Shown piece after piece: positions 8,997 through 57,912 of a DNA stretch of 64,000 bases. Within the stretch, counting starts at the first letter, position 1; each line of letters opens with the position of its first letter. Source of the stretch: an uncultured Gammaproteobacteria bacterium (GTDB lineage: Bacteria; Patescibacteriota; Microgenomatia; Daviesbacterales; UBA10151); contig CAYUPO010000001.1 of NCBI GenBank assembly GCA_964446685.1, positions 104,502 to 168,501 on the forward strand, given 5' to 3'. Made by a program: the position numbers and the translations under genes. Under the pieces are notes generated by a model. It was not told the DNA's origin. It worked only from the letters and a program-made list of their open reading frames with translations, and searched no databases.

Positions 8997-9523
8997 AAAT
9001 TATTTAAAATAAACTCCATTCTTTTTTCCGATTTCATAACAGGTACCCTGACAACCGTGTGACCATATTTTATATATGTTTCCTCTAATAAGCTATCTAT
9101 CTCTTTTGCTTCTTCTGCAGTCTCTGTTCTGGAATAATCTTTTGAGTATTGCAATAAATCAAAGATAAATACTTTTTTATATTTACTTAGTTTGGCAATT
9201 TCAGATAACTCATACTCATCTGTTATCCCACATTTTTTCAAATACGCAATGGAATCATGCATCCCCCTATCAAAAAAAATCATTTCATTCTTAGACAAAG
9301 ACTTTTCAAGTTGAATTTTTAAATTTACCTGAGCTTTTTGGAATTCAATTTCATTTTCTCTAATCTGTTCCAGAGTTCTACCTTTTTTCAACTCTTGATC
9401 AATTAGTTTTCTAGCAACCTCTTCAGTAATTTTAAACCCTTTTTTGCTTAATAATTTAAGCACTGTGGTTTTGCCTGATGATGGAGGACCTGTTATCACA
9501 TACCAATTATTCTGACTATTCAT
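8993..9523 (-). CDS. P-loop NTPase / predicted small kinase (AAA_28-like)
   Basis: 176 aa; Walker A GPPSSGKTT. Confidence 0.5.
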   Translation of the reverse strand: MNSQNNWYVITGPPSSGKTTVLKLLSKKGFKITEEVARKLIDQELKKGRTLEQIRENEIEFQKAQVNLKIQLEKSLSKNEMIFFDRGMHDSIAYLKKCGITDEYELSEIAKLSKYKKVFIFDLLQYSKDYSRTETAEEAKEIDSLLEETYIKYGHTVVRVPVMKSEKRMEFILNNL

Positions 9524-10468
9524 TTATGTGGTGTAAACACTTTTCCTGCCTACTTTCTGTCTTAATATTTGTCCTAAAACATGCCAGTTGCTAAAACTAA
9601 ATGAATTGACTCCTTTTGGAGGAGTTGCAACTTCTTGGTAATTTCCAAATAGTACATTCCCAGCAACAGCCATCTGACCATCTTTTACAGGGTCATCTCC
9701 AAAGTATATTACTTTATCAGCATGTTCATGAATTAAAGAAAGATCTAAGTCATCATGTGGGAAACCGGGTAAATCAAGCCATCTCCTTACTGCTAGTGCT
9801 AAAGAGAAGGGTGATGGCTTAACTATATTCTTACCATCAAGTGAAGAGACACCTCTAATGTCATCTTCTGACACAATAATATCTGGTTGAGACAATCCAT
9901 GTTTTTTAAATGTTTCTTCAATAAATAATTCATGACCTGAGGAAATATTTGCCGTTGTAATCGGGACACCTTCTTTTTTTAGATCATCGACAGTTTTCCA
10001 AAAATCAACAAATCCTCTACAAGGGCGTGGCCAAATATCTTTTTCAGATAATTTCATACCTATTTGGGGCATCATACTTCTTTGCTTTTGTCTAACAAAT
10101 ATTTCAGTCAATGCTTCCGTAGTTAATGGTTTTGTTAAATCCAATTCATACCCTTTTCCAACTGGCACATAACCATCTAGTAGCTCTAAGTTCTGGTGAG
10201 CGAATTCACCTGCTAAATTAACCAATTTAGCATTATTTCTTGCTGAAGAACCAGTAACAAGTGCTTTAACCACTTCGCTTGGGGCTCGGTTACGTAATCC
10301 ACCTTGAGCTAAATAAAGATTTAATCCCATTTTGCCAAACATCCTCTCAACAGTTTGTTCATAAGCTACTGGCACACTGGCAATCCCCGGCGCCATCTCG
10401 CTAGTCCTAAACTGGGTATTATCAAAATCAAACGCCAGTAATAATCCTTCAGGGGAATGGCGTTTCAT
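9524..10468 (-). CDS. HAD-like hydrolase (putative phosphatase)
   Basis: 314 aa; motif I FDFDNT, motif IV FGDDPVKD. Confidence 0.45.
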   Translation of the reverse strand: MKRHSPEGLLLAFDFDNTQFRTSEMAPGIASVPVAYEQTVERMFGKMGLNLYLAQGGLRNRAPSEVVKALVTGSSARNNAKLVNLAGEFAHQNLELLDGYVPVGKGYELDLTKPLTTEALTEIFVRQKQRSMMPQIGMKLSEKDIWPRPCRGFVDFWKTVDDLKKEGVPITTANISSGHELFIEETFKKHGLSQPDIIVSEDDIRGVSSLDGKNIVKPSPFSLALAVRRWLDLPGFPHDDLDLSLIHEHADKVIYFGDDPVKDGQMAVAGNVLFGNYQEVATPPKGVNSFSFSNWHVLGQILRQKVGRKSVYTT

Positions 10469-13400
10469 TTATTTAAAGTAGTTTACTCCGTTCCTGAATA
10501 TTTGTAAGCCAGGACCTTCAACTGGTAAATCTTTTCCATCTCTTTTGAGTTGTTCTTTGATAAGTGGCCAATTTGGTAATTGAGTGAAAAACATTGCTCT
10601 TTCAGGATGTGGCATCAGGCCAATGATCCTGCCTGTTTCATCTGTGATCGCAGCAATATCTTCAACTGCCCCATTTGGATTAGCTGGTAAATTTAGATAA
10701 TTACACATTTCACCTTTAAAATATCTGAGTGCCACCAATCCTTTCTGATTTATCATTTCTAAAGTTTCGTCCTCAGCATAAAATTTACCTTCGCCATGGG
10801 CGATCGGACAGGAAAAAGTATCTACATCTTTGACCCAGGGACTGTTTCCTTCAGCTTTCAGGTCCACCCATCTGTCGGTATAGGTAGCATTATCATTGTG
10901 CAAAATAGCAACCTGCTTTTGACCATATTTTTTATCAACCGCCGGAAAAAGTCCCAGATTTGCTAGGACCTGACAACCATTGCAGATACCGATAACAAGC
11001 CTATCCAGACTGATAAACCGCTCTAAATCTTCCCATAAATTGTTTTTTAATTTATTGGCAAAACCATTTCCGGAACCGGTATCATCACCAAAAGAAAACC
11101 CGCCTGGAATTGCTAAAATCTGATAATTTTTCAATAATTTTTTATTAGCTATCAGATCATTAATATGCAGGATATCAGCTTTTCCTCCAACTTTTTCAAA
11201 AGCTGTTTTAGTTTCCATCTCACAGTTGATTCCGTAGCCTGTCAGAACAGCAGCTTTTGGTGTAATTGCTGAACTTTGATGAGCAAAAGTTGATTTGTAC
11301 GATGAATACATCTGATCCAATGGAAGATCAACTATCTCTTCACTTGCAACTCCTTTGATTTTAACTTTCTTGTTTTGGGTAACAGATCCTAGAAAGCTGA
11401 TAGGGAGATCTTTAAATAAAGACTCAAACTGCGGTTTATTTTTTGGATCAATACTGACTAATATTCGGCCAGCTGATTCAGAAAATAAAAGAGTCTGATT
11501 ATTGCCTGTAATATTTTCCAAAGAAATATCAATTCCCAGTTGTCCGGCGAGGGCCATTTTTGATAGAGCAATTATTAATCCGCCACGGGTAACACTGACA
11601 CTGCTGGCTAATAAATTATTTTTAATTGACTGATGTAATACCTGATAAAGTTTTTTGTTTCGGTCAATATCCACATCAGGCAATGAATTGCCGGGTGCAA
11701 ATTCATTATTTTTTTCTGAAAGATATTGATAGTACTCCGAGCCACCTAAGATATCTTTTGTTTCACCCAACAGGTATATCAGATCACCTGGTATTTTAGC
11801 GTCCATTGAGACCACTTTTGTGACATCTTCGATAACCGAAATGGAAGATATTACAAGGGTTGGAGGGACTGAGATTTTGACAGCATTACCTGATTCGTCA
11901 AATCCTTTGAAATCATTAAACATGCTGTCTTTTCCGGATATAAACGGCGCGCCATATCCAACTGCCGCATCATAACAACCTTTAGCAGCCAGTTTTAATT
12001 GTCCGAGTCTTTCTTCTTCAAAGGATGAACACCAGCAGAAATTATCCAGCAAAGCAATTTTATCCGGATCTGCACCAACAGAAACTAAGTTTCTGACAGC
12101 TGTATCTACTGAAATAAGCGCCATTTGGTAGGGATCTATCTCGGAATAACCTGGGAAAAGTGCCTGAGAAACAGCAGCCCCTTTTAATGAATCAGGCAGC
12201 GGCTTGATAACTGATGTTTCTCCATTTACTCTCCCTCTCCCCTGGAGGGGTTTCAGTACTGTCATGGATTGGACCTCATGGTCATACTGAGTGGAAATAA
12301 ATTCAAAACTAGTGATATTAAGTCTTTTAACCAGATCAACTGTAACCTCGTTATAATCACTGACATCAGGAATAACCGGATTTTTAAAATCCGGCTTAAT
12401 CCATTTTGAAGTTAACTGTCTTTCAGGCAGGCCATCATGCAAAAATTCAAGATTAATATCCAAAATCTTTTTTGAATCCAGAAAAACTTCACATTTTCCG
12501 GAATCTGTAAATTCCCCGATTGCAGTGGCTTCAACTCCTCTTTGTTCAAGAAGCAATTTAAGCTGCTGCCATTTATCCTGCGGAACTGCCAATGTCATTC
12601 TTTCCTGTGATTCAGAGATCCAGATCTGCCATGGATCAAGCCCGGGATATTTTAGAGGCACTTTTTCTAAATCAACTCGACAGCCGCCGGATTCTTTTGC
12701 CATCTCAGCTACTGAACAAGATAAACCACCGGCGCCATTGTCAGTAATACTGTGATATAGCTCCTGAAATACGGCTTCTTTACTCAAGGCATCTGAAAAC
12801 TTTTTTTGAGTGATCGGATCCCCAATCTGAACAGCCGTTGAAGGAGAACCACTATCTAAAGCTTCCGAAGAAAAAGTAGCTCCATGTATCCCGTCAAGTC
12901 CGACTCTGCCCCCTAACATGACAACCAGATCTCCGGGTCTGGCTTTTTTCTGAAACGATTTTTTGCCATTTATCTCTCGTTGAATCAACCCTAAAGTCCC
13001 GACAAAAACTAATGGTTTTCCTTTGTATCTGTCATCAAAATAAATAAATCCCTGAGTAGTCGGTATTCCAGATTGGTTTCCTCCTGAATTAACACCGGCG
13101 ATCACCCCATCCATAATTCTTTTGGGAGATAACATCGCCTGGGTCAGCCCGCTATCTTTAAACAAAGGTTTATGATCATCCGGATCAGCGAAACAAAAAC
13201 CATAAGTATTCAAAATTGGCCTTGCTCCCATGCCAAAACCAAGTGCATCTCTGTTTACTCCGACAATTCCTGTAATTGCACCACCAAATGGATCAAGCGC
13301 TGATGGGGTGTTATGAGTTTCGACTTTGTGAGTTATCAGATACTGATCATCAAAGGCAATAGCACCTGAGTTGTCTGTAAAAACTGAAACACAAAAGTCA

Positions 13401-34552: not shown

Positions 34553-35371
34553 TTAAGAATTCTTGGCAGATTGAACAACGTTTCTTAGTAAACAGGCGAT
34601 TGTCAGAGGGCCAATGCCTCCAATTGTCGGACAAAATAGCTTGGCTTTTTCCGCAATTGCTTCCTCATCTAAGTCACCGACTGTTTTACTATTCTCATCT
34701 TTACTGACACCAACACCAATTATATAAGCCCCTTTTTTAATATTCTGGGCATTAATAATATGCTTTTTGCCGGTAGCAGAGATAATAACATCTGAGGACT
34801 GGATAATACCATCTGGGTTTTGGGTTTGGGAATGGATCAAGTTTGAGGGGAATCTTTTTGTTAAAAGCATTTCCCTGATCGGTCCACCCGCAGTCTTCCC
34901 TCTGCCTAAAACTGTTATATTTTTTCCTTTAAGGAAATTTTCAGCTTTATCAAATCCTTCAATTCGGGCAAACTCAGTTAGCATCTCCCAAACGGCGGCG
35001 GCTGTAGCAGGCATAAATGGAGCATCAAATTTAAAACCATCAACATCTTTTTTTGAATTAACTGCTTTGGATAACTCTTTAAAATCCCAGCTTACAAAAA
35101 TTGGAAACTGAATAATAATCCCGCTGACTGTTTTATTTAATTTAAGAATCAATGGCAGAACCTGATCTTTCTGATCTTCACTAAATTGATGCAAAGTGGC
35201 AGCAATTCCAATTTCTCCGGCTCTGGCTAGTTTATTTTCGACATAGAGACGGGATGCAGAATTGTTGTTTGCTAAAATGATAGCTAACTTTGCCTGAAGC
35301 TGGTCTTCCGCTATTTCAAGTTTCAGTGCATTTAAAATTGAATCAGCTAGTGGTTTTCCGGATACTTTCAT
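34553..35371 (-). CDS. folD: bifunctional methylenetetrahydrofolate dehydrogenase/cyclohydrolase
   Basis: 272 aa; VLGRGKTAGGP and GGIGPLT motifs. Confidence 0.85.
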   Translation of the reverse strand: MKVSGKPLADSILNALKLEIAEDQLQAKLAIILANNNSASRLYVENKLARAGEIGIAATLHQFSEDQKDQVLPLILKLNKTVSGIIIQFPIFVSWDFKELSKAVNSKKDVDGFKFDAPFMPATAAAVWEMLTEFARIEGFDKAENFLKGKNITVLGRGKTAGGPIREMLLTKRFPSNLIHSQTQNPDGIIQSSDVIISATGKKHIINAQNIKKGAYIIGVGVSKDENSKTVGDLDEEAIAEKAKLFCPTIGGIGPLTIACLLRNVVQSAKNS

Positions 35372-37188: not shown

Positions 37189-38556
37189 TCAGATATCAAT
37201 TCCTGGGACGGGGAATTTTTTAGCAAAGGAGGTGATCTCTTTTTGAAGCTTGAGTAAGTTTTTGTTTTTAACAATCTCTGCCCGGAATTTTCTCAGTAAT
37301 TCTAAGCGTCCTTCTTTATCAGCTGGCAGAATATATCCTTCAACTTCTTTGATCACCTGGGCAATCCAATTGCCTACCTTCACCATATCTTTTTCTTTCA
37401 TTCCCCGGGTAGTCAAAGCTGGTGTTCCAATCCGGATGCCTGAGGTATAAAAAGGAGGCATTGGATCATATGGAACAAGTGAGAAATTCAGAACGATTCC
37501 GGCAACTTCCAAAGCCTCGGCAGCTAATTTGCCCGACACCTGCTGTCGCTGCAGATCAACTAATATCAGATGATTATCTGTGCCTCCGGAAACCAGATCC
37601 AGACCGTTTTTGGTCAGAGTTTCAGCCAATTTTTGGGCATTTTTAACAATTTGAGCAGCATATTTTTTAAACGAGGCTTTTGAAGCTTCTTCCAGCGCTA
37701 CGGCAATGGCGGCTGTCTGATTGTCATGCGGACCTCCCTGAAGGCCCGGGAAGACTGCAGCATCGATTTTTTTACCCATTTCCGGATCTTTCTTTAACCC
37801 TCTCTCAGTTACCATAATCATCGCCCCTCTTGGACCCCGCAAGGTCTTGTGGGTAGTGGTCATCATCACATCAACATATGGTGCCGGTGAAGGATGCGCT
37901 CCTCCCACTATCAGCCCGGCAATATGTGAAACATCAGCCATCAAAAGTGCACCAACTTTATCAGCAATCTTGCGGAATTTGGCGAAATCGATAGTTCGGG
38001 GGTAAGCCGTAAAGCCGCAAATGATTAAATCAGGTTTTTCATTTAAAACAGCCTCCTCTACTTCTTTATAATCTAACTGACCGGTTTTTTGGGAAACTTT
38101 GTAATGAGCGGTTTTGAAAAACCTCCCGGAAAAACCAATCTCCAGACCATGAGTGATATGTCCACCCTGATCCAGAGCCAGTCCCATCATTTTCTGGCCG
38201 TTTTTCAAAATTCCCATAAAAATAGCGGCATTAGCCGGGGATCCTGAATAAGGCTGAACATTGACATGAGGCACCCCAAACAGTTTTTTAGCTAAATCCT
38301 GGGCATAGATTTCAACTGTATCAACCACTGCATTGCCCTGATAGTAACGTCTTTTTGGATAGCCTTCTGAGTATTTATTGGTAAAAACAGAGCCCAGTGT
38401 TTCAATAACTGCTGAGGAAGTATAGTTTTCTGAAGCAATCATCTCCAGCACCTCTTTTTGGCGCTTTTCTTCCTGTTTAATAGCGTTATAAATTTTAGGT
38501 GATTGTTTCTTTAAGGCCTTCATCTTCGATGGAAATACAATAACCCGAAGTCCCAT
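37189..38556 (-). CDS. glyA: serine hydroxymethyltransferase
   Basis: 455 aa; PLP-lysine region TTTHKTLRGPRG. Confidence 0.9.
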   Translation of the reverse strand: MGLRVIVFPSKMKALKKQSPKIYNAIKQEEKRQKEVLEMIASENYTSSAVIETLGSVFTNKYSEGYPKRRYYQGNAVVDTVEIYAQDLAKKLFGVPHVNVQPYSGSPANAAIFMGILKNGQKMMGLALDQGGHITHGLEIGFSGRFFKTAHYKVSQKTGQLDYKEVEEAVLNEKPDLIICGFTAYPRTIDFAKFRKIADKVGALLMADVSHIAGLIVGGAHPSPAPYVDVMMTTTHKTLRGPRGAMIMVTERGLKKDPEMGKKIDAAVFPGLQGGPHDNQTAAIAVALEEASKASFKKYAAQIVKNAQKLAETLTKNGLDLVSGGTDNHLILVDLQRQQVSGKLAAEALEVAGIVLNFSLVPYDPMPPFYTSGIRIGTPALTTRGMKEKDMVKVGNWIAQVIKEVEGYILPADKEGRLELLRKFRAEIVKNKNLLKLQKEITSFAKKFPVPGIDI

Positions 38557-48805: not shown

Positions 48806-48935
48806 CTCTTTTAACTCACACGGAAAAATCTAACACGTTTCCTGTAACTTCTCTAGTAGCGGAATAGTTAGGAAACATATCTACTAGATGTGTGATAAAA
48901 AGGATTGTAAAAGATATAGGCTCAAAAGTCAACGG

Positions 48936-49190
48936 TTAATTAGCTTTGCGGCGATAATTAGTAGTCGGATTATTAATTGGTCTCTGTCTGGCCATTCCCC
49001 GAAGACCTCTTCCTGTAAAAAGGTCATCTTTCATGCGTCTAGGGTTGAAAACAACTTGAGCTTTACTTCGAGGAACATTCTCACCATTTGTTACAAAATA
49101 GGCTATAACAGACATCATTGCTTCAATTGCTTGTCCATTGCCAAGTCCCAGACCATCAAGGGCAACAAATTCAGGAGCTTTTTTACTCAT
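48936..49190 (-). CDS. hypothetical small protein
   Basis: 84 aa; between rpsB and folA. Confidence 0.3.
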   Translation of the reverse strand: MSKKAPEFVALDGLGLGNGQAIEAMMSVIAYFVTNGENVPRSKAQVVFNPRRMKDDLFTGRGLRGMARQRPINNPTTNYRRKAN

Positions 49191-49235
49191 GCGAATATTT
49201 ATATAACTCTAAAAAAGATTTGTCAATTGCTGAGC

Positions 49236-49775
49236 TTACTCAAGAATTTGGGTTTTGTAGTGTATTCCCTGTTCTTCAAAACTTTTTTCTTCTATTATTT
49301 TTTCAAATGCTGAATAATCCGGAAAATAGGTATCGCCTGAATATTCTCCTTCCACTATAGTCAGATACAGCCTGTCTGCTAAAGGTAGTGCCTGCTCATA
49401 AATCTGGCCTCCACCAATTATAAAGATCTCATTTGAATAAGTATCTTTTTTTGAGGTATCAAACGTATCAGATGTTGCGTTGGCTTTTGGTACTTTTGAT
49501 ACTTCTGATGCTTTTTCTGCCTCCTCTATCGCTTTATCTAATGAATTTACGACTATTGCTCCATCAACTTTATAATCTGGATCTCGGGTGATAATAATAT
49601 TGATTCTGTTTGGCAATACGCGGCCAATTGATTCATGTGTTTTTCTGCCCATGATAATCGGATGGCCAGATGTAATTTCTTTAAATCTTTTCAGTTCACC
49701 TGGGATATTCCAGAGAAGCTTATTTTGACCGCCAATCAGACGGTTTTTATCCATTGCTACAATTAGGGAAATCAT
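49236..49775 (-). CDS. folA: dihydrofolate reductase
   Basis: 179 aa; ISLIVAMDKNRLIG..LPW-like N-terminus. Confidence 0.8.
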   Translation of the reverse strand: MISLIVAMDKNRLIGGQNKLLWNIPGELKRFKEITSGHPIIMGRKTHESIGRVLPNRINIIITRDPDYKVDGAIVVNSLDKAIEEAEKASEVSKVPKANATSDTFDTSKKDTYSNEIFIIGGGQIYEQALPLADRLYLTIVEGEYSGDTYFPDYSAFEKIIEEKSFEEQGIHYKTQILE

Positions 49776-49776
49776 A

Positions 49777-50424
49777 TTAGGTCCTTTTGAGACTAGCTAA
49801 TCCTGGGCACAAGTCAGTTATTATCATTCTAGCTTGATTTAAGCATGGATTAACTCTTAATTTCATATTCAAAGGTACCAGTCTAATACCTGTAACTGCA
49901 AGAACAAGATTTAATTTAACAGTCAGTTTATCTAAAAATGCCGGGTCATTAAACTGGCAGTAACCCATTCTCTCCGACATTAATTCCAGATCATTAATTG
50001 CCCGGTAACTTTCCTCAAAAAAAGTACGCTCATCTGAAGGTAGTCCAGCCAACTCAGAATCAAATTTCTGGTTCCCATTTTGAACCTGATCAAATCTTGG
50101 ACCCGCAATAAAAGCAGATCGTGCTATAGGTATACCCTCATGGTCTAATGTCCGCTCTAAAATGGGATTGACTTCAAATGCACAGGGAAGTGTTCTATTT
50201 CCTATATTTAATACACTGGATACAGGAATCAATTTTAAATTTTCAGCTGCAGTATTGGTTACTTCTTGGTACAAAGCCACTTGTGACGGATCTGACTGCC
50301 ATGTTGGGTAATGCTTTAAAATCTCACCTGTGGAGGTCAGAAAAACATCAGAATCGGCACCATGGGCAATTTTTTTCAAAGAGGTTAGCTTTGCCATTTT
50401 TGGCAGTTCAGGATTAAAATTCAT
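49777..50424 (-). CDS. hypothetical protein
   Basis: 215 aa; immediately upstream of folA in the same operon; no firm family. Confidence 0.35.
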   Translation of the reverse strand: MNFNPELPKMAKLTSLKKIAHGADSDVFLTSTGEILKHYPTWQSDPSQVALYQEVTNTAAENLKLIPVSSVLNIGNRTLPCAFEVNPILERTLDHEGIPIARSAFIAGPRFDQVQNGNQKFDSELAGLPSDERTFFEESYRAINDLELMSERMGYCQFNDPAFLDKLTVKLNLVLAVTGIRLVPLNMKLRVNPCLNQARMIITDLCPGLASLKRT

Positions 50425-50518
50425 ATCTTATAGTATACATAACATTTTAAAGTAACTCAATTCCGAATATACAACATATTGTTATATTGAAAAAAAGTTA
50501 TCCATTTACTAGTATGGT

Positions 50519-51361
50519 TTGATCATGACTTCATTTGATCTTCAATACCAAAAACTTCTTAAAGAGATAATGACCAATGGCATTGAGGAGATCAATGAAC
50601 GAACTAAGCACGGTGTCAAAGCACTCCCTGGTAAATCAATTGAACTAGAAGCTGGCGAAGGTTTTCCGCTTCTTACTTTGCGTAAAATCCCAATTCGGAT
50701 CTTTGTCGCTGAGCAGGTCTGGTTTTTGACTGGATCAAGGCGACCATCAGAATTTCTGAATAAATTCACCAAGATCTGGGATGATTTCACCAATGTTGAC
50801 GGCGTAGTTTCAACTGCTTATGGCTATAGATGGCGACATCATTTTGGCAGAGACCAAATTGCTTTATTGATTAATCTGCTAGAAAAAGAACCCTCTTCCA
50901 GGCATGGCGTGGTGATGATGTGGGATGCTGCAAGTGATGGTCTCTCCCCGACTTTCAAAAAAGCTAATATCCCCTGTCCCTACTCTTTTACCGTCAATAT
51001 TATTGGCGGAATGCTGCACATGCATCTGATTGTGAGATCAAATGATGTCATTTTAGGTCTACCACATGATGCAGCTGGTTTTGGTTTGCTGCAACGAATT
51101 CTGGCTGCCAGACTTGGTGTCAAAGTCGGCAAGTACACTCACACTATCTCCAATGCGCATGTTTATGATATACATTATGACGCAGCGCAGGAGATGATTA
51201 AGCGAAAAAATAAGCATCAGCCTGTGGAAATCAGCGCTTCAAAAAATTGGTTTAGCAGGGCAGAAAAAGGAGATGAAAAGTTGGTAGCAGAAATAGTTGA
51301 TGCACTGAGTAGTCAGTACCAGCCAGGAGAAGCGTTAAAGGGATTGAAAATAGTTCTTTAA
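50519..51361 (+). CDS. thymidylate-synthase-family (ThyA/dCMP-hydroxymethylase superfamily) pyrimidine C5-modifying enzyme; Asn-to-Asp at the base-specificity position
   Basis: 280 aa; FPLLT.K, RWR, SRH, catalytic Cys in IPCPYS (PCP not PCH), RSNDVILGLPHD aligns to E. coli RSCDVFLGLPFN with N177 replaced by D. Confidence 0.7.
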   Translation: MIMTSFDLQYQKLLKEIMTNGIEEINERTKHGVKALPGKSIELEAGEGFPLLTLRKIPIRIFVAEQVWFLTGSRRPSEFLNKFTKIWDDFTNVDGVVSTAYGYRWRHHFGRDQIALLINLLEKEPSSRHGVVMMWDAASDGLSPTFKKANIPCPYSFTVNIIGGMLHMHLIVRSNDVILGLPHDAAGFGLLQRILAARLGVKVGKYTHTISNAHVYDIHYDAAQEMIKRKNKHQPVEISASKNWFSRAEKGDEKLVAEIVDALSSQYQPGEALKGLKIVL

Positions 51362-51373
51362 CCCGTTTTAATC

Positions 51374-51450
51374 CGTCATTCCCCTGAAAAGGGGAATCTG
51401 TAAATACCTAAGAGTAGGCACCGCATATTCCTGCTTTCGCAGGAATGACG
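51374..51450. repeat. two palindromic elements between the thyA-family gene and dcd-like gene
   Basis: CGTCATTCCCCTGAAAAGGGGAATCTG and ATTCCTGCTTTCGCAGGAATGACG. Confidence 0.75.
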
Positions 51451-51452
51451 TT

Positions 51453-52127
51453 TTGACAAAAGAAAAACTTATGACACAAGGAATATTAACCAAACAACAA
51501 ATATTAGAATTGATTGAGTCAGAACAGCTCAAATTTTCCCCAGCAATTGATTCATTTCAGGTCCAATCACATTCCATCGATCTGCGACTCGGGTATTCAT
51601 TCATGATCCCTAAACTATGGTCTTTGACTGAGAAAGGACGCGAAGCCTTTTTGATTGATTATCTGGATGAAACTGAAAGATTTGAACTGGTTGAGCTGGA
51701 GCACAAACAATTTTTTGACCTTTTACCAAAAGAATCGGTTGTCGCTTCAACTCTTGAAGAAGTCTCCTTACCAGCTAATTTAATGGCTGTCCTCTACCCA
51801 CGTTCTTCTATTAATCGACGCGGCCTGTCTGTTGATCTTTCTGGTATTGTTGATGCCGGATATGAAGGAAGGTTGTTGATACCTATTACCAATAACACGC
51901 CACATGTAATCAGAATTTACCCAGGTGAAAGGTTTTGCCAGTTAGTATTTTATCCACTGTCTGAAGATATTAAGGTAGAACAAAGCAGATGGCATAAAAA
52001 GGATATTATTATAGGTAGACTCCCTGAAAAGAAAAAAGCTGAGGAAAAATATATTGTCTCTGGCGATATAAAAGGATTAAAACAAAAGTTTGCTCTGACT
52101 GCTCCTAAAACCAATGATTCAAAGTAA
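51453..52127 (+). CDS. dCTP deaminase / dUTPase-superfamily protein (Dcd-like)
   Basis: 224 aa; SIDLRLG, LYPRSS, GIVDAGYEGRL motifs; the position aligning to the Dcd catalytic Glu appears to be non-acidic. Confidence 0.6.
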   Translation: MTKEKLMTQGILTKQQILELIESEQLKFSPAIDSFQVQSHSIDLRLGYSFMIPKLWSLTEKGREAFLIDYLDETERFELVELEHKQFFDLLPKESVVASTLEEVSLPANLMAVLYPRSSINRRGLSVDLSGIVDAGYEGRLLIPITNNTPHVIRIYPGERFCQLVFYPLSEDIKVEQSRWHKKDIIIGRLPEKKKAEEKYIVSGDIKGLKQKFALTAPKTNDSK

Positions 52128-53157
52128 ATCTGGCTTCATATTTGAAGGAAAAACTCCCACTGATGTCTTAAAAGATGTCCAGGAAGCTATTCAAACTCAT
52201 GGCTCCTCTATTCAAACCCAAAGAGGAATTGCTAAATCGATTCGTGGCGCAACTTTTATCATTAATGACATCTCAAATGAAAAGAAAAATTATCCTTACT
52301 GGGACAAACAGTCAGATGACTGGTATCAGGATAACTTTGTCAGAAAAGAAACAACATTAGCTCCGGAAATAATCAAACCTGGACAGGATATTTATCCTTA
52401 TAAATATGCCTGGAGATCAAGATATTATGACAGTGGAACTGGTTATATTGTGGCGGTTATAACTGTCTTAAAAAAACTCAAAATTAAAAAGCTACAGATT
52501 AAAAATGAATCTCAACTGATTGATTTACTCAAACAAAGTTATCTGTTGATTCATCCAGAAATCGTTTTGGCTGTCTTGTCCTGGAAAGGTTTAAAACTAA
52601 TCAACTTTTATTTGGAAAATCCAAAAATCTTAGAGTTAGAGCTGCAAACTCAAAGACGAGATACTCTGGAATCAGTTATTGAAGAAGTTAAACAATCTCC
52701 CGCGACCAGACGCGCCATCATGCCATCATTTACTTATGAACATATTGACCATTCAGGAGCTGCAGGTGGAGTACCTGTCTACCAAAATTATCAGCTCTAT
52801 GTAAATTTTGACAAAAAAGGTAATCCTGCAAGTATTACTTCATATCATCTACATAGGGCGATTGATGCTTTTGGCGGGGCTCAGCTGGATATCAATCATG
52901 ATAAAGAATGGGGACTATATGCATCGAAAAAACTAAATTTACCTTTGGAAAAAATAGTTATTTATGTCAATGACGTCTGGGCTAGCTTTGATAAAGATAT
53001 GCAACACCTTTCAAATAAAACCGATATTCGCTCTTGGTTATTTTCTGTGACAGACGCCTATGATCCAAAACTGGAAGATATAGATAAAAGACTGAGTTCC
53101 CCTCTGTATAAAAAGAAAATTAGTTACACTTTGTTTCAAATTACCAGCTATGGATAA
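52114..53157 (+). CDS. ThyA-fold paralog with no cysteine (predicted non-catalytic or non-canonical thymidylate-synthase-like protein)
   Basis: 347 aa; RRAIMPSF..VPVYQNYQLYV..HRAIDAFGG..VNDVW parallels ThyA core motifs; zero Cys residues; 14-bp overlap with the upstream dcd-like gene. Confidence 0.5.
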   Translation: MIQSKSGFIFEGKTPTDVLKDVQEAIQTHGSSIQTQRGIAKSIRGATFIINDISNEKKNYPYWDKQSDDWYQDNFVRKETTLAPEIIKPGQDIYPYKYAWRSRYYDSGTGYIVAVITVLKKLKIKKLQIKNESQLIDLLKQSYLLIHPEIVLAVLSWKGLKLINFYLENPKILELELQTQRRDTLESVIEEVKQSPATRRAIMPSFTYEHIDHSGAAGGVPVYQNYQLYVNFDKKGNPASITSYHLHRAIDAFGGAQLDINHDKEWGLYASKKLNLPLEKIVIYVNDVWASFDKDMQHLSNKTDIRSWLFSVTDAYDPKLEDIDKRLSSPLYKKKISYTLFQITSYG

Positions 53158-53170
53158 TTTAATAATTGTA

Positions 53171-54325
53171 TTACCTTTTTCCAATAACAAATTCCGTCCC
53201 TGTAATTCTCGAAATAATTGCCCTTAAAAAAGTCAGTGAACACGACTTAATGAAACTATCAATGATCCATGATTCTTTTTTTGTTAATAGTTCTTCTAAA
53301 TATGCAGGGTTGTATCTTACAAGATTAGATAAATAGAACATTATTAAATATATTGCAATTGTTTCATTCATTGGAATCTGTTTATTAATTTTATAAGGTA
53401 ATGAAGTTACAAACTCTAAACCATCATCAAAATAATTCACTTGAGCTATAGAACCAAGTGATTCTAGAACTAAATTCCTACATTTTTTTTCTGGGATTAT
53501 ATCTGGATTATCCCAAGGGATTGTTTGTCTACTTTGAAAAAAAGTAAAAGCTAATATAATATCTCTGCTAACCTGGAAATATTCTCTTGCATATTTTTCT
53601 GGAACCTCGACTAGTTCAAATTTATCAAAAAAAATATTTAAAGACTTTTTATATTTTTTAAATTCATTAAAATTGGGAATACCAACTAAAGGCCATGCTG
53701 TCTTATTACTATGGTCAACTAAATTTACATAGTAACAGCTTTCAACTTTTCTTCTTCCATATCCAGCTATTAATGATTGATAAGAAATATCCGTACAATA
53801 ACTTAGTAGCTGTTCGACACTTAGAGACTGTTTTTTAATTGGAGATTCACAAAACATTTCATAAAATCTTTCAAAGACTCCATTATCTTTTATAATTTTA
53901 ATTGTTTGTTTTTTTATTTTTGTAAAATCTTTCGGAAGACAACTTGCACCATGGCTTATTCTTTTACCTCCAATCTCGGGATTCTTTTGAATGATTAATG
54001 CCTTTGCTAAATTCAAAAAACAGTAGTAATAAAGTAATGCTGCAGATCTAGGATGAAGCTGCTTTGCAGCATGATAATAATTTTTTGCCTGTCTAATATA
54101 GCCCTGAAAATGCTTGTAAGTGGTTTTTATTTTTCTTCTTGCAACACCTTGCTCGAGTAAATGTTTAATTCCAACTGATTCGATTTCGGAATAATATTCT
54201 ATTAATATCCATAGTTCATCATCTATTTGCCCATCCGTTTTCAAACCTTGCAAATTTCTAGTACTTAATGGTTGTCTAATCCATCCCGAAGCTGCTCTAA
54301 AAGTTCCTGTAGGAATTTCACTCAT
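53171..54325 (-). CDS. hypothetical protein
   Basis: 384 aa; AT-rich codon usage; no family recognised. Confidence 0.4.
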   Translation of the reverse strand: MSEIPTGTFRAASGWIRQPLSTRNLQGLKTDGQIDDELWILIEYYSEIESVGIKHLLEQGVARRKIKTTYKHFQGYIRQAKNYYHAAKQLHPRSAALLYYYCFLNLAKALIIQKNPEIGGKRISHGASCLPKDFTKIKKQTIKIIKDNGVFERFYEMFCESPIKKQSLSVEQLLSYCTDISYQSLIAGYGRRKVESCYYVNLVDHSNKTAWPLVGIPNFNEFKKYKKSLNIFFDKFELVEVPEKYAREYFQVSRDIILAFTFFQSRQTIPWDNPDIIPEKKCRNLVLESLGSIAQVNYFDDGLEFVTSLPYKINKQIPMNETIAIYLIMFYLSNLVRYNPAYLEELLTKKESWIIDSFIKSCSLTFLRAIISRITGTEFVIGKR

Positions 54326-54947
54326 TTATAAGTAATCCAGTTATTTCTTTAAATAAATCTTCTTTGCTTTGCATACCATCTATTACTTTGACTGTATCAG
54401 GATGAGCTGAAGCAAATGTCAGATAACCTTGTCTTAATTTTTCTAAAAATTGGACGCCCTGCATCTCATAAATCAGATCCTGACCTTTTCTATCAGCATT
54501 TGCTCCTCTTTTGATACTTTCTTCAGTCGGTATATCGATAATGATAAATAAATCCGGATAAGCACCTGAATTTTTAACACAGTATTCTGATAAGGTATCA
54601 AGTAGACTGAGATCAACCCCCTGAACTATCCCCTGGTAAACATAGGTTGAGGATTCAAACCGATCTGTAATCACCATTTTCCCGGCATCAAGATTTGGTT
54701 TAACAACTTGATCCATAAACTCGGTTCTAGCGGCGTAAAAAAGGAGAGTTTGGGTAACTGGATTGGCCATTTGGTCACGAGGTTTTAAAACGACTTCTCT
54801 AATCTCTTCGCCCATTTGGGTCCCCCCAGGTTCGCGAGCTAAGACGACATCAGTACCAAGATCTAGGAAATATTTTTCAAGCATTTTGGCCTGGGTAGAT
54901 TTACCACAGTTGTCGATGCCTTCTAGTACTATGAATTTACCTTTCAT
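54318..54947 (-). CDS. tmk: thymidylate (dTMP) kinase
   Basis: 209 aa; LEGIDNCGKST P-loop, DRF/LID features. Confidence 0.85.
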   Translation of the reverse strand: MKGKFIVLEGIDNCGKSTQAKMLEKYFLDLGTDVVLAREPGGTQMGEEIREVVLKPRDQMANPVTQTLLFYAARTEFMDQVVKPNLDAGKMVITDRFESSTYVYQGIVQGVDLSLLDTLSEYCVKNSGAYPDLFIIIDIPTEESIKRGANADRKGQDLIYEMQGVQFLEKLRQGYLTFASAHPDTVKVIDGMQSKEDLFKEITGLLINE

Positions 54948-55053
54948 AACAATTAAATATCCAAAGTCAAATGTCTAATGCCAAATGTAGAATGTCAAAT
55001 TTCCAATGATGTATTGGACATTTGTCATTTGACATTGGTAGTATTTGACATTT
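54948..55053. repeat. AT-rich spacer with inverted CAAATGTC.. / GACATTTG.. heptamer arms (tmk-mazG)
   Basis: read directly. Confidence 0.6.
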
Positions 55054-55398
55054 TTATCTCTTATCCCCGCTTCCTCCTAGTTTGCCTCTTTCCATTCGCG
55101 AATAAAGTTTTTTGATATTTTTCTCAGCTACTTCTTCCAGATTAACATCCAGCTCTGAAGCAATTTGAGTCAGATACCACAAGACATCTCCTAGTTCTAA
55201 TGTCAGCATCTCTTTATCTTCCTGCGTGATCTCCCCTTTTTTATCACGAAAAATTTTTTTAATTTTTTCGGATATCTCTCCTGCTTCACCGGATAATCCC
55301 AGCACAGGGTAAATTATCGGATGACCAATTGGCGGATATCCAGCAGTTTTACGAGAGTCTTTTTGATAGTTTCTGAAACTATAATTGGTTTTCTTCAT
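55054..55398 (-). CDS. MazG-like all-alpha nucleoside triphosphate pyrophosphohydrolase
   Basis: 114 aa; LGLSGEAGE..ELGDVLWYL metal-binding motifs. Confidence 0.65.
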   Translation of the reverse strand: MKKTNYSFRNYQKDSRKTAGYPPIGHPIIYPVLGLSGEAGEISEKIKKIFRDKKGEITQEDKEMLTLELGDVLWYLTQIASELDVNLEEVAEKNIKKLYSRMERGKLGGSGDKR

Positions 55399-55403
55399 TT
55401 TTT

Positions 55404-55479
55404 GTCATCCCGAACTCGTTTCGGGATCTACCCTTTTGTATAACCTCGGCAGATGCTGAAACAAGTTCAGCATGACAAG
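55404..55479. repeat. two palindromic elements between mazG-like gene and pyrG (GTCATCCCGAACTCGTTTCGGGATC; GATGCTGAAACAAGTTCAGCATGAC)
   Basis: second one shares CTGAAACAAG with the 51-98 / 27965-28011 variant. Confidence 0.65.
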
Positions 55480-55484
55480 GTATA

Positions 55485-57098
55485 TTATGTTAACTTAACT
55501 TTAGATGCAGCTTCTAGAAAACCCAGAAACATTGGATGAGGAGCCAATGGGCGGGATTTGAGCTCTGGATGAAACTGTGAACCGGCCATAAATGGGTGAT
55601 CCGCAATCTCCATGATTTCGACTAATTTTCCATCAGGAGAAGTTCCGACAATATTTAGGCCTTTTTTCTCAAATTCTTCCCGATATTTGTTGTTCACTTC
55701 ATAACGGTGACGGTGTCTTTCGGATACTTTGGCTTTTCCATAAAGTTTTCTCATTAGTGATCCGGCTTTGAGGTCACATTCCCAGGCACCCAGTCTCATA
55801 CTGGCTCCATAATCTTTGGCTAAGACCTTTTTCTCCTGATCTGACATGATATGGATGACCGGAGCTTTGGTAGCAGGATCTATCTCGGTTGAGTTGGCAT
55901 CTTTGTATCCAAGCACATTGCGGGCAAATTCAATCGCCATCATTTGCATGCCATAACACAAACCAAGATAAGGAATTTTGTTTTCCCGGCAATATTTAGC
56001 TGCAGCTACTTTGCCTTCGGTATCTCTGCCGCCAAAGCCGCCTGGCACAATAATTCCCTGATAGTTATCAAGTAGTTCAGGTTTTTCTAAAACTTTTCCT
56101 GAATCGACCCAGTGAATATCGGGTTTTAATCCAAACTGATAGGCTGCATGTTTGCAGGCTTCAATAACCGAAATATATGAATCAGTCAGGACTCCGGCGC
56201 CACTGGTAAAATATTTGCCGACGATCGCAATTTTTACCGGAGTTTTAGCGCTGTGGGCTTTTTTAACAAATTCACTCCATTCTTTTAAATCAGTCTCTTT
56301 TCTTTCCAGTTCAAGTTTTTTCAGTATTCGATCGGTCAGGTTTTGTTTTTCATAATCTAAAGGCACATCATAAATACTTTCCACATCAGGGGCTGCAATA
56401 ATATCTTCCTCTTCTATTCCTGTATTCAAAGATAATCGTTTGCGACGGGGGGCATCTATTGCTACTTCAGCTCTGGCTAAAATAATATCGGGTTGGATCC
56501 CGACAGAATTTAAATCCCTGACAGACATCTGAACCGGTTTACTTTTCATTTCACCTAGTGTGGAAGGAATTGGCAGATAACTGATATGGACATGGATCAC
56601 ATCGTTATGTTTTTTTAGTTTCATCAGACGGTTGGCTTCCAAAAATAGCATATTTTGGTATTCCCCGGCGGTACCACCTATTTCAACCAAGACAATATCA
56701 GCATTTTTATTTCTACCGGCATCCTGAATTCTTTTTAATATTTCCTGAGTGACGTTGTGAATATCTACATAGTCGCCGTCGTATTCCAGATTGCGTTCTT
56801 TTTGGATAACAGATAAATAAATACTACCCTGAGTATTAATACTGGAAGATGTTAGATTTTCGTTGAGGTATCTTTCATAGTGTCCAAGATCCTGATCAGT
56901 CTCTCTACCATCATCCAGGACAAATGTTTCACCATGAGCGAGTGGATTCATAGTTCCGGCATCAACATTTAGATAAGGATCCATTTTGACTGGTACGACT
57001 TTAAATCCAGCAGCTTTGAGGAGGAGGCCAATCGAGGCAGTTGCAATGCCTTTTCCAATACCCGATATTACGCCACCTGATACAAAAATGTATTTCAT
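55485..57098 (-). CDS. pyrG: CTP synthase
   Basis: 537 aa; VSGGVISGIGKG N-terminus, GATase GLCYGMQ. Confidence 0.9.
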   Translation of the reverse strand: MKYIFVSGGVISGIGKGIATASIGLLLKAAGFKVVPVKMDPYLNVDAGTMNPLAHGETFVLDDGRETDQDLGHYERYLNENLTSSSINTQGSIYLSVIQKERNLEYDGDYVDIHNVTQEILKRIQDAGRNKNADIVLVEIGGTAGEYQNMLFLEANRLMKLKKHNDVIHVHISYLPIPSTLGEMKSKPVQMSVRDLNSVGIQPDIILARAEVAIDAPRRKRLSLNTGIEEEDIIAAPDVESIYDVPLDYEKQNLTDRILKKLELERKETDLKEWSEFVKKAHSAKTPVKIAIVGKYFTSGAGVLTDSYISVIEACKHAAYQFGLKPDIHWVDSGKVLEKPELLDNYQGIIVPGGFGGRDTEGKVAAAKYCRENKIPYLGLCYGMQMMAIEFARNVLGYKDANSTEIDPATKAPVIHIMSDQEKKVLAKDYGASMRLGAWECDLKAGSLMRKLYGKAKVSERHRHRYEVNNKYREEFEKKGLNIVGTSPDGKLVEIMEIADHPFMAGSQFHPELKSRPLAPHPMFLGFLEAASKVKLT

Positions 57099-57190
57099 AA
57101 TAATTACAAATATCTAATATCTAATAAAAATCAAAATACAATCGTTCCAATTTAGCATTGGATATTTGATATTTGATATTTGATATTTTT
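57099..57190. repeat. AT-rich spacer with AAATATCTAATATCTAAT and TTGGATATTTGATATTTGATATTTGATATTT arms upstream of pyrG
   Basis: read directly. Confidence 0.6.
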
Positions 57191-57421
57191 CTAGCTTGGG
57201 TTTCCTGCTCTTTACAGAAAAACTTAAGGGGATCCTTTGACTATTCTCAGGATAAATTTATGCTTTCAGATTTTTCAAAATCTTGAGCCCTCATTAAAGT
57301 ACCAAGAGAATGTTCTGTTGTCAACTAAGGAAAAACGCCATATTTGCTTGATTTCAAACTCTGTAACCCCAACCATACTACCCTCATAATGGAAGGTAGT
57401 ATGTTACTCATCTGCTATCAA

Positions 57422-57703
57422 TTATAAAGTCCTTCTTAACTCTGCTGGACCAGTTGCTAGAAACTGCTTTGGAATTCCATTAATCCCTCTTTTTAAAAAT
57501 GATGCTTTAGCAACATCTGGTGCACTAGTCACTGCATCTATTGATGCAACCAAATTTCCTGATGAAGGACCTTCCACTTGATGCTCCAACCTGCCGTGCT
57601 CAGCCAGCCATCTTAAGAAACGCAGCCTTGACATATCGACTGGTCTCGGTGTCTGTACAAACATTTGTAATGCACTATCATAATTGCCCATTCTTTCACT
57701 CAT
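57422..57703 (-). CDS. hypothetical small protein with a strong RBS
   Basis: 93 aa; AGGAGGT 7 nt upstream of ATG (57711-57717). Confidence 0.5.
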   Translation of the reverse strand: MSERMGNYDSALQMFVQTPRPVDMSRLRFLRWLAEHGRLEHQVEGPSSGNLVASIDAVTSAPDVAKASFLKRGINGIPKQFLATGPAELRRTL

Positions 57704-57740
57704 TTGTTTTACCTCCTTTCTTTATTTTTATACTCAAAAA
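57704..57740 (-). promoter_or_regulatory. Shine-Dalgarno (AGGAGGT) plus TATAAA-like -10 for the 57422-57703 gene
   Basis: minus-strand read: cgtttttgagTATAAAaataaagaaAGGAGGTaaaacaaATG. Confidence 0.4.
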
Positions 57741-57747
57741 CGAAAAA

Positions 57748-57784
57748 GCCGCCCATTTGGTGAGGCGGCGGTTTGATTTTTTTT
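57748..57784. terminator. bidirectional intrinsic terminator (GCCGCC-loop-GGCGGC stem with U-tracts on both strands); serves topA on the minus strand
   Basis: aaagccgcccatttggtgaggcggcggtttgattttttttt read directly. Confidence 0.55.
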
Positions 57785-57912
57785 ACTCTTTTTTGAGTAC
57801 ATCAACCACCAGCACCAGTGAGGTGAAGGGGGGTGATCATAATGATACTCACGAAATAATTCATACTGTATAGGGGCTTACTCCTGTAGGAAGAACAAGT
57901 CAATCAGACAGT

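Follow-up and report, generated by a model that had tools for sequence, protein, structure and literature searches.

A housekeeping thymidylate locus of a CPR bacterium with enzymes predicted to make thymidylate via 5-methyl-dCMP

Introduction

The Xanthomonas phage Xp12 encodes a 5-methyl-dCMP module consisting of a thymidylate synthase (TS) homologue that is a dCMP methylase, a 5mC deaminase of the dCMP deaminase family, and DHFR. The Xp12 TS homologue, and five of seven metagenomic TS homologues predicted from the N177 position to make 5mdCMP, produced 5-methyl-dC, the deaminases encoded in cis (the MetaGPA "mSCD" phage modules) were 5mC-selective, and a 5mC to T route was proposed (bioRxiv 10.1101/2024.12.05.627091). 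Methylation of dCMP before deamination has so far been described only for phages with 5-methylcytosine DNA. In the canonical bacterial ThyA/DHFR/SHMT cycle, which is accompanied by Dcd or a dCMP deaminase, deamination comes first. Phage T4 uses dCMP hydroxymethylase (gp42), whose product needs no DHFR, with the dCTPase gp56 and the dNMP kinase gp1. Other TS-superfamily enzymes acting on cytosine nucleotides are MilA, a Cys-dependent CMP C5 hydroxymethylase, and the flavin-dependent 5-hydroxy-dCMP synthase (PDB 9iqc); the 5-hydroxy-dCMP synthases are reported to keep Cys146 (PMC13326640). Positions 177 and 147 are the best discriminators of cytosine-modifying TS homologues (PMC8670742), residue 143 tracks methyl versus hydroxymethyl products, and D169N marks the hydroxylases (PMC13326640).

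We analyzed a 64,000-nucleotide stretch (the window) of contig CAYUPO010000001.1 (assembly GCA_964446685.1) from a Daviesbacteria-like bacterium of the ultra-small CPR group. A preliminary description made from the sequence alone had reported a pyrimidine deoxynucleotide island in one operon-like block, with an Asn to Asp change in a ThyA homologue, a Dcd-like protein lacking the catalytic Glu, a second Cys-less ThyA-fold protein and two unknown genes, and had likened it to phage base-hypermodification modules and the Asn to Asp change to that in T4 dCMP hydroxymethylase.

Results

Gene content of the locus

The gene content and order were as described previously, and the observations made from the sequence were confirmed (Table 1). 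The 384-aa gene, however, was not unknown but YaaC-like. The block comprised three transcription units on alternating strands rather than one operon-like unit.

Table 1. Features of the thymidylate locus and linked folate genes, with positions in the window. Roles are predicted from sequence and gene context.
Feature	Position	Strand	Profile or sequence match	Predicted role and remarks
FolD-like	34553-35371	-	tblastn match to FolD of related locus L001	Methylene-THF dehydrogenase/cyclohydrolase; folate-cycle partner
SHMT (glyA)	37189-38556	-	tblastn, 46% identity to SHMT of the L001 operon	Regenerates methylene-THF; 12 kb away here
folA (DHFR)	49236-49775	-	PF00186, 179 bits	Recycles DHF produced by reductive methylation; divergent from ThyA(D)
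215-aa gene	49777-50424	-	No Pfam or NCBIfam hit	Lineage-specific insert
ThyA(D)	50525-51361	+	PF00303, 175.5 bits	dCMP C5-methyltransferase (5-methyl-dCMP synthase); ORF opens at TTG 50519, homologues start at the ATG at 50525
Dcd(P)	51471-52127	+	PF22769, 113 bits; TIGR02274, 109.8 bits	dCTP (possibly also dUTP) diphosphatase supplying dCMP; ORF opens at TTG 51453, likely start is the ATG at 51471
TS-fold2	52114-53157	+	PF00303, 18.9 bits (below cut-off)	5-methyl-dCMP to dTMP deaminase of this lineage (inference); overlaps the Dcd(P) stop by 14 nt
YaaC-like (384 aa)	53171-54325	-	PF14175, 115 bits	Lineage-specific insert; AT-rich (GC 0.29)
tmk	54318-54947	-	TIGR00041, 152.9 bits (cut-off 83)	dTMP kinase, dTMP to dTDP
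MazG/YpjD-like	55054-55398	-	PF03819, 44.8 bits	Small NTP pyrophosphohydrolase; facultative accessory, possibly clearing dCTP or 5-methyl-dCTP
pyrG	55485-57098	-	TIGR00337, 664.5 bits	CTP synthase; supplies cytosine nucleotides upstream

Active-site residues of the ThyA homologue and the Dcd-like protein

HMMER alignments to solved thymidylate synthases and a MAFFT alignment with E. coli ThyA placed RSNDVILGLPHD on RSCDVFLGLPFN, so that Asn177 is Asp and His147 of the PCH motif is Pro in the ThyA homologue, here called ThyA(D). Cys146, Glu58, Arg21/126/166, Asp169, His207, Tyr209 and the C-terminal tail were kept, including all phosphate and ribose ligands, while L143N, W83F, C168N and Q165V were also substituted. 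N177D and H147P were found in 94 of 94 related loci and in 120 of 120 database homologues, and L143N and W83F were likewise invariant in both sets. The Xp12 enzyme shared N177D, H147P, L143N, W83F, a hydrophobic residue at 165 and the motif AYGYRWRxHFGRDQ, and was 34-36% identical to ThyA(D). The best phage hits were Xp12-like phages, at 36-39% identity compared with 29% to E. coli ThyA. When compared using an approximate T4 sequence, the T4 hydroxymethylase shared Asp at the N177 position and Asn at position 168, but had L143D and H147T, no TS-like C-terminal tail and only about 20% identity. ThyA(D) scored above the TIGR03284 thymidylate synthase cut-off (127 versus 108) but failed the stricter NCBIfam ThyA equivalog cut-offs (149 versus 327). 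All sources annotate it as thymidylate synthase, and the CPR literature treats it as such.

In the Dcd-like protein, here called Dcd(P), the catalytic Glu (E. coli E138, the ITLELSN motif in M. tuberculosis) aligned with Pro (LLIPITN). The Glu to Pro change occurred in 75 of 77 loci and 118 of 120 homologues. The changes in ThyA(D) and Dcd(P) are thus family traits and not chance. W131 was replaced by Tyr, and the motif VDAGYEGRLLIP, with its Asp/Tyr, resembled dUTPase motif 3.

The Cys-less TS-fold protein

Residue mapping of the second protein, TS-fold2, with hhalign matched R199/R200 to R126/R127, V222 to C146, R248 to R166, D251 to D169 and D259 to N177. Y223, H245, H247, D259, H262 and D263 were conserved family-wide, over sequences only 24-40% identical, and the position of Cys146 was held by Pro, Val or Ala. 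The nearest structural neighbor was a flavin-dependent dCMP hydroxylase, but no sequence similarity to MilA or the 5-hydroxy-dCMP synthase was detectable by phmmer. TS-fold2 was not found in viral contigs.

Conservation of the module in related loci

The locus lies between rseP-frr-tsf-rpsB and topA, and both this synteny and the module itself were conserved across CPR genomes. Dcd(P) was adjacent to ThyA(D) in 80 loci (median gap 95 bp). DHFR was found in 55 related loci, often immediately downstream of ThyA(D), tmk in 49 at a median of about 1 kb from ThyA(D), and SHMT in 44. The L001 operon has the order ThyA-DHFR-Dcd-Tmk-SHMT-FolD. The 215-aa gene occurred only in the closest relative and the YaaC-like gene in none, and pyrG kept its position only in the Daviesbacteria relative (L004/L017), making it context rather than a conserved member. 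The MazG-like gene, whose best solved relative is B. subtilis YpjD, directly follows Dcd(P) in loci L006, L007 and L010, and a "nucleotide pyrophosphohydrolase" is annotated next to the TS homologue in some Xp12-like phages. In Xp12 itself the order is TS-deaminase-DHFR.

A deaminase-type gene was present in 44 of 45 well-flanked loci, of which 36 had a CDA-type deaminase, 7 had TS-fold2 and 1 had an amidohydrolase. Over all loci, the CDA type was found in 71 and TS-fold2 in 13, and never both. The HxE...CxxC motif was intact in 68 of 73 CDA-type ORFs. The three deaminase types sit in equivalent positions in loci L015, L016 and L014. The CPR CDA-type deaminases gave no phmmer match to the Xp12 deaminase. 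No CDA motif occurred in the 64-kb window, although a CDA gene could lie elsewhere in the genome. The loci with TS-fold2 fall in three adjacent groups, nearly one contiguous block, of the ThyA(D) tree, and the exclusivity may therefore reflect only one to three events.

Discussion

The interpretation given in the preliminary description was only partly supported. ThyA(D) is very probably a cytosine-nucleotide C5-modifying enzyme, and the gene logic does parallel a phage module. However, the best analogue is the Xp12-type methylase, deaminase and DHFR module rather than T4 dCMP hydroxymethylase or a hypermodification cluster, because position 143 is Asn as in Xp12 and not Asp/Glu as in hydroxymethylases, the C-terminal tail is kept, and DHFR and SHMT are linked. 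The logic of dCTPase, TS homologue and kinase is shared with T4, but no glucosyltransferase or other hypermodification genes are present here. The locus is also not an island, and the two genes taken as unknowns are unrelated inserts that are not conserved with the module. It differs from the Xp12 module in its place at a conserved housekeeping locus of cellular genomes and in carrying Tmk, SHMT, FolD and a Glu-less Dcd. With the canonical cycle it shares the TS fold, the folate partners, an end product handled by Tmk and a housekeeping role.

The explanation we consider somewhat more likely than not is that this locus runs thymidylate synthesis in the order dCTP, dCMP, 5-methyl-dCMP, dTMP, dTDP. 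In this view, Dcd(P) cannot deaminate and instead hydrolyzes dCTP (perhaps also dUTP) to the monophosphate, and ThyA(D) uses methylene-THF to methylate dCMP reductively, giving 5-methyl-dCMP and DHF. A deaminase would then convert 5-methyl-dCMP to dTMP. In most CPR lineages this would be the CDA-type zinc deaminase encoded beside ThyA(D), while in this lineage that gene is absent from the locus and TS-fold2 sits in its place. TS-fold2 keeps the TS phosphate-binding arginines and an Asp at the base-specificity position, and has gained a conserved His/His/His/Asp cluster where TS contacts C4 of the pyrimidine, the clustering being inferred from alignment to TS positions 163, 165, 177, 180 and 181. 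We therefore propose that it is a new kind of 5-methyl-dCMP deaminase, which is the weakest step. Whereas the residue changes, their conservation and the gene context were observed directly and the folate recycling by DHFR, SHMT and FolD is established chemistry, the activities of Dcd(P), ThyA(D) and TS-fold2 are inferences, every substrate assignment resting on residue signatures and gene context. Asn at position 143 is polar, so that hydroxymethylation is not formally excluded, and the one characterized phage deaminase of this kind (mSCD-B5) acts on the triphosphate, not the monophosphate (bioRxiv 10.1101/2024.12.05.627091).

An ordinary thymidylate pathway, in which ThyA(D) remains specific for dUMP, Dcd(P) is a dUTPase or dCTPase, and the linked deaminase (CDA type or TS-fold2) makes dUMP from dCMP, appears unlikely. 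The general catalytic residues, the C-terminal tail, the TIGR03284 score and the annotations would fit it, and a dCMP deaminase next to ThyA, DHFR, SHMT and Tmk is also what the classical Gram-positive route looks like, so that only the ThyA residues argue for methylation first. Nevertheless, Asn177 to Asp is the experimentally established switch to dCMP (Liu & Santi 1992 and Hardy & Nalivaika 1992, as cited in PMC8670742 and bioRxiv 10.1101/2024.12.05.627091), the whole signature (177, 147, 143, 83, 165) matches the Xp12 methylase and is invariant over the 94 loci, and ThyA(D) fails the stricter NCBIfam ThyA equivalog cut-offs. It is similarly doubtful, but possible, that the pathway is correct while TS-fold2 is a regulatory or heterodimerizing pseudo-enzyme of ThyA(D), or performs other chemistry on a cytosine nucleotide, with the deaminase encoded elsewhere. 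TS enzymes are obligate dimers with shared active sites, catalytically dead paralogues are common, the TS-fold2 loci form essentially one block of the tree, and the hydroxylase neighbor shows that the fold supports other chemistries. The strong conservation of polar residues lining the nucleotide pocket argues for catalysis, however, and TS-fold2 takes the same operon slot as the CDA-type and amidohydrolase-type deaminases, with no CDA motif in the window.

Least likely, though not excluded, is the reading of the preliminary description, that the module depletes dCTP and feeds 5-methyl-dCMP (or 5-hm-dCMP) into DNA, so that genomic cytosine is partly or wholly replaced as in Xp12 or T4 and deamination provides dT as a side branch. 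The gene logic is that of Xp12, Dcd(P) and the MazG-like enzyme are two candidate dCTP pyrophosphatases, and the action of the characterized Xp12-type deaminase on 5mdCTP implies a 5mdCTP pool. On the other hand, the kinase is a canonical dTMP kinase and not a T4-gp1-like dNMP kinase, TS-fold2 keeps a monophosphate-type binding site, and literature searches found no report of bulk 5mC in CPR genomes. The locus is also housekeeping and ThyA(D) is the only TS-family gene seen in any of the loci, so that, unless a thyX or an Asn177 thyA lies elsewhere in the genome, it must at least supply dTMP. The most economical purpose of this conserved housekeeping locus of CPR bacteria is dTMP synthesis by a non-canonical order of steps, with one step in this lineage apparently performed by a previously undescribed Cys-less TS-fold protein.

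Gene content and setting of the locus

ORF listing and profile searches of the window gave the gene order shown in the table below. HMMER alignments to solved thymidylate synthases and a MAFFT alignment with E. coli ThyA confirmed that, in the ThyA homologue (ThyA(D)), Asn177 is replaced by Asp and His147 by Pro, and alignment to solved dCTP deaminases placed Pro where the catalytic Glu belongs in the Dcd-like protein (Dcd(P)). The observations of the preliminary description therefore held, with one correction: the genes form three transcription units on alternating strands and not one operon-like block. Its interpretation was supported only in part, since a cytosine-modifying role for the ThyA homologue fits the data, while a genomic island and a T4-like modification cluster do not.

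Coordinates of the features in the window and in related loci (L numbers designate related loci from genome and metagenome scans)
Locus	Feature	Coordinates	Strand	Evidence or remark
Window	gap between rpsB and folA	48806-49235		about 430 bp without convincing genes
Window	folA	49236-49775	-	PF00186, 179 bits
Window	215-aa ORF	49777-50424	-	no Pfam or NCBIfam match; co-directional with folA
Window	ThyA homologue, ThyA(D)	50519/50525-51361	+	PF00303, 175.5 bits
Window	Dcd/Dut-fold protein, Dcd(P)	51453/51471-52127	+	PF22769, 113 bits
Window	second TS-like protein, TS-fold2	52114-53157	+	PF00303, 18.9 bits (cut-off 24.3)
Window	384-aa gene, YaaC-like	53171-54325	-	PF14175, 115 bits; GC about 0.29
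Window	tmk	54318-54947	-	TIGR00041, 152.9 bits
Window	small MazG	55054-55398	-	PF03819, 44.8 bits
Window	pyrG	55485-57098	-	TIGR00337, 664.5 bits
Window	gap between pyrG and topA	57099-57912		about 810 bp without convincing genes
L008 (closest relative)	ThyA(D) match	8001-8833		two overlapping tblastn pieces, 8001-8267 and 8261-8833
L010	CDA-type deaminase	7500-8156	-	beside ThyA(D)
L011	CDA-type deaminase	7462-7968	-	beside ThyA(D)
L014	amidohydrolase fusion, 590 aa	9352-11121	+	PF01979, 152 bits; PF05014
L015	CDA-type deaminase	9341-9781	-	beside ThyA(D)
L016 (GCA_021323855.1, JAJPKE010000015.1)	full module	8001-12444		ThyA(D)-DHFR-TS-fold2-Dcd(P)-Tmk

The locus is not an island. The same neighbourhood recurs in other CPR genomes, with rseP-frr-tsf-rpsB on one side and topA on the other, and this conserved flanking synteny, together with conservation of the module itself, led us to reject a genomic island or a horizontally acquired block. 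In one 485-kb contig (L001, CAZOVJ010000001.1) the genes form a tight co-directional operon in the order TS-fold2 – ThyA – DHFR – Dcd – Tmk – SHMT – FolD – rpsB – tsf – frr, whereas in the window SHMT and FolD lie 12-15 kb away. Other long contigs that carry the module are the 755-kb Ga0209062_1000017 (L041) and the 220-kb MFDF01000008.1 (L004). Homologues carry the CPR labels Daviesbacteria, Shapirobacteria, Colwellbacteria, Parcubacteria, Saccharibacteria and ‘Patescibacteria group’, and MAGs with the first five of these labels carry the module. In L016 the full module occurs on a contig of 59% GC whose neighbouring genes (TetR, F420H2 quinone reductase-like, enoyl-CoA hydratase and a TIR-domain protein) do not look CPR-like, which suggests that the module is spreading beyond CPR. 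The splitting of the ThyA(D) match in L008 indicates a frameshift, which could be an assembly error or a pseudogene.

The 215-aa and YaaC-like genes were rejected as pathway members because they are absent from nearly all related loci. The former is shared only with L008 (79% identity). The latter, which is wedged between TS-fold2 and tmk, is in none of the related loci and is the only compositionally odd gene of the block (GC of about 0.38 for the window); it looks like a recent insertion of unknown function. Both are lineage-specific insertions. A role in anti-phage defence received no support, as PADLOC gave no hit for the YaaC-like, 215-aa, TS-fold2, Dcd(P) or MazG proteins. No ThyX, CDA, thymidine-kinase or RNR motif was found within the 64-kb window, which is the only part of this genome covered by the search, and no Rfam family or tRNA was found anywhere in it.

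The ThyA homologue

A total of 94 non-redundant loci were collected from genome and metagenome scans, each with at most 10 kb of flanking sequence. The substitutions N177D, H147P, L143N and W83F were found in 94/94 loci and C168N in 92/94, with Val or Ile at position 165. Cys146, Glu58, Arg21/126/166, Ser167, Asp169 (94/94), His207, Tyr209 and a hydrophobic C-terminal residue are all kept, with C146, R21, R126 and R166 invariant. Positions 177 and 147 are the two best discriminators of cytosine-modifying TS homologues (PMC8670742). A bulky hydrophobic residue at position 143 goes with methyl products and Asp/Glu with hydroxymethyl products, while D169N marks the flavin-dependent 5-hydroxylases (PMC13326640). 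TS homologues predicted from Asp177 to methylate dCMP, including that of phage Xp12, were shown to make 5-methyl-dC (bioRxiv 10.1101/2024.12.05.627091).

A tblastn search of phage genomes put Xp12-like phages at the top, at 36-39% identity, as compared to 29% for E. coli ThyA. The Xp12 enzyme shares N177D, H147P, L143N, W83F, a hydrophobic residue at position 165, and motifs such as AYGYRWRxHFGRDQ and KN(V/I)PCP. T4 dCMP hydroxymethylase differs at positions 143 (Asp) and 147 (Thr) and lacks the C-terminal tail, in a comparison that used a T4 sequence not taken from a database record. A few IMG/VR contigs classified as viral (L098-L101) encode ThyA(D)-like proteins at 44-52% identity to the window protein, closer than Xp12, and could be CPR phages or misclassified CPR fragments.

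Based on these residues we assign ThyA(D) to the Xp12-type dCMP methyltransferase branch of the thymidylate synthase family. Unlike a canonical thymidylate synthase (EC 2.1.1.45), it lacks Asn177 and His147 of the dUMP pocket, and it passes the TIGR03284 cut-off (127 against 108) but fails that of NF002497 (149 against 327). That it makes 5-methyl-dCMP and DHF from dCMP and methylene-THF is inferred with only indirect support, namely the tight linkage to DHFR and SHMT, which fits a reductive, DHF-producing reaction, and the retained hydrophobic C-terminus. A T4-like hydroxymethylase or hypermodification cluster was rejected because position 143 is Asn and not Asp/Glu, the full-length tail and the DHFR/SHMT linkage are kept, and no transferase genes are present. 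Asn143 is nevertheless polar, and a hydroxymethyl product is unlikely but not excluded.

The Dcd-like protein

Dcd(P) belongs to the dCTP deaminase family by profile, exceeding the TIGR02274 equivalog cut-off (109.8 bits against 92.8), but the essential catalytic Glu (E. coli E138) is Pro in the window protein, in 75/77 loci and in 118/120 database homologues. It carries the motif-3 Asp and deoxyribose-stacking Tyr (xDxxYxG) of trimeric dUTPase/dCTPase-type diphosphatases, in a dUTPase-like (I/V)DxGYxG motif that reads VDAGYEG in the window protein; Asp was found in 76/77 loci and Tyr, in place of Trp131, in 76/77. The gene is almost always directly next to ThyA(D), with a median gap of 95 bp. 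A Dcd that cannot deaminate, next to an enzyme that needs dCMP, is most simply a dCTP (and possibly dUTP) diphosphatase, although hydrolysis to the monophosphate and PPi is an inference from the lost deaminase residue and from the need for dCMP.

The deaminase slot and the second TS-fold protein

Scanning of the loci revealed a third recurrent partner, usually a PF00383 (CDA-type) deaminase beside or divergent from ThyA(D), with the HxE…CxxC motif intact in 68 of 73 CDA-type ORFs. Among the 45 loci with at least 2.5 kb on both sides, 36 have the CDA-type gene, seven have TS-fold2, one has an amidohydrolase-family protein (L014) and one has none. Over all 94 loci, CDA occurs in 71, TS-fold2 in 13, and both together in none. 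We do not treat this exclusivity as strong statistics, since the ThyA(D) tree puts the TS-fold2 loci in three adjacent groups, nearly one contiguous block, and it may reflect only one to three events. The three alternatives sit at equivalent positions: ThyA-DHFR-CDA-Dcd in L015, ThyA-DHFR-TS-fold2-Dcd-Tmk in L016, and ThyA-DHFR-amidohydrolase-Dcd-Tmk in L014. Phage Xp12 has the order TS-deaminase-DHFR.

The CPR CDA-type deaminases (e.g. those of L010, L011 and L015) share an unusual N-terminal YPYLPxGRxIxYVP motif and an extra CxxC pair before the H(A/S/G)E…CxPC zinc motif. A phmmer comparison found no similarity between them and the Xp12 deaminase, and they may be a distinct 5-methyl-dCMP-specific clade. 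The L014 protein is a fusion of an amidohydrolase with a nucleoside 2-deoxyribosyltransferase-like domain, and its position in the deaminase slot makes it a third candidate non-orthologous deaminase. Separate ORFs of about 150 aa matching this protein, presumably its PF05014-like part, occur in four other loci (L020, L085, L094 and L096).

A search of the PDB with the single TS-fold2 sequence returned nothing, and a profile gave only marginal TS hits, so that structure comparison was needed to place the protein in the TS superfamily; its AF2 model has pLDDT 88.9. Profile alignment maps R199/R200 to R126/R127, R248 to R166, D251 to D169 and D259 to N177. The nucleophile Cys146 is Val here and Pro/Val/Ala across the family. 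Homologues down to 24% identity conserve Y223 (position 147), H245, H247 (position 165), D259, H262 and D263. The family is small, with 45 representatives among 1.84 billion clustered proteins, and none was found in IMG/VR viral contigs. The protein has no Pfam hit other than the weak PF00303 match, and no H/CxE...CxxC zinc motif occurs anywhere in the window. TS-fold2 may work like a deaminase, but it is not a member of the CDA family.

Proposed pathway and alternatives

The proposed route is dCTP →(Dcd(P))→ dCMP →(ThyA(D), CH2-THF)→ 5-methyl-dCMP + DHF →(TS-fold2)→ dTMP + NH3 →(Tmk)→ dTDP, in which DHFR, SHMT and FolD would close the folate cycle and MazG would be an optional nucleotide-pool cleaner. 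Residue states, folds, gene linkage and their conservation were established by the analysis, while every substrate and product in this scheme is inferred, without biochemical data for any CPR member. We infer that TS-fold2 binds a cytosine 5'-monophosphate and has replaced covalent catalysis by a His/Asp (possibly metal) site at C4, the clustering of the conserved residues being deduced from alignment and not from model coordinates. That would make it a 5-methyl-dCMP deaminase that displaced the CDA-type enzyme in this lineage.

Three other readings were considered: ThyA(D) could be a classical dUMP-specific thymidylate synthase despite Asp177, the pathway could be right with TS-fold2 a non-catalytic or otherwise-acting paralogue, or genomic C could be replaced at the pool level by 5mC or 5hmC, which was the idea of the preliminary description. 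In the furthest form of the last reading, these bacteria would not merely route dTMP synthesis through 5-methyl-dCMP but would also incorporate 5-methyl-dCTP, so that much or all of their genomic cytosine would be 5-methylcytosine installed before replication, as in phage Xp12, with the Glu-less Dcd and MazG acting as dCTP-exclusion enzymes. These would be the first cellular organisms with a pool-level base substitution. This is not excluded, but we consider it very unlikely.

The chemistry has a precedent in 5mC phages. Deamination of 5-methyl-dC nucleotides to thymidine nucleotides has been proposed for Xp12 and the MetaGPA contigs, and for mSCD-B5 it was shown at the triphosphate level (bioRxiv 10.1101/2024.12.05.627091). 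Literature searches for a cellular dCMP-methylase route, or for any comment on the residues of CPR ThyA, found nothing, and the CPR literature treats these genes as ordinary thyA. What differs from the phage systems is the cellular, housekeeping, phylum-wide setting, the systematic Glu-less Dcd partner and the TS-fold candidate deaminase, the last of which would be a new enzyme type if confirmed.

If the proposed pathway is correct, it would be a second, cellular solution to an essential step that textbooks describe as universal (ThyA or ThyX acting on dUMP), and two routinely assigned annotations in these genomes, ‘thymidylate synthase’ and ‘dCTP deaminase’, would be functionally wrong. The Cys-less TS-fold protein would be a new deaminase type built on a methyltransferase scaffold, at a time when 5mC-selective deaminases are sought for methylome sequencing (bioRxiv 10.1101/2024.12.05.627091). 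These cells would hold a 5-methyl-dCMP pool, with consequences for DNA modification, mutation pressure and phage-host conflict.
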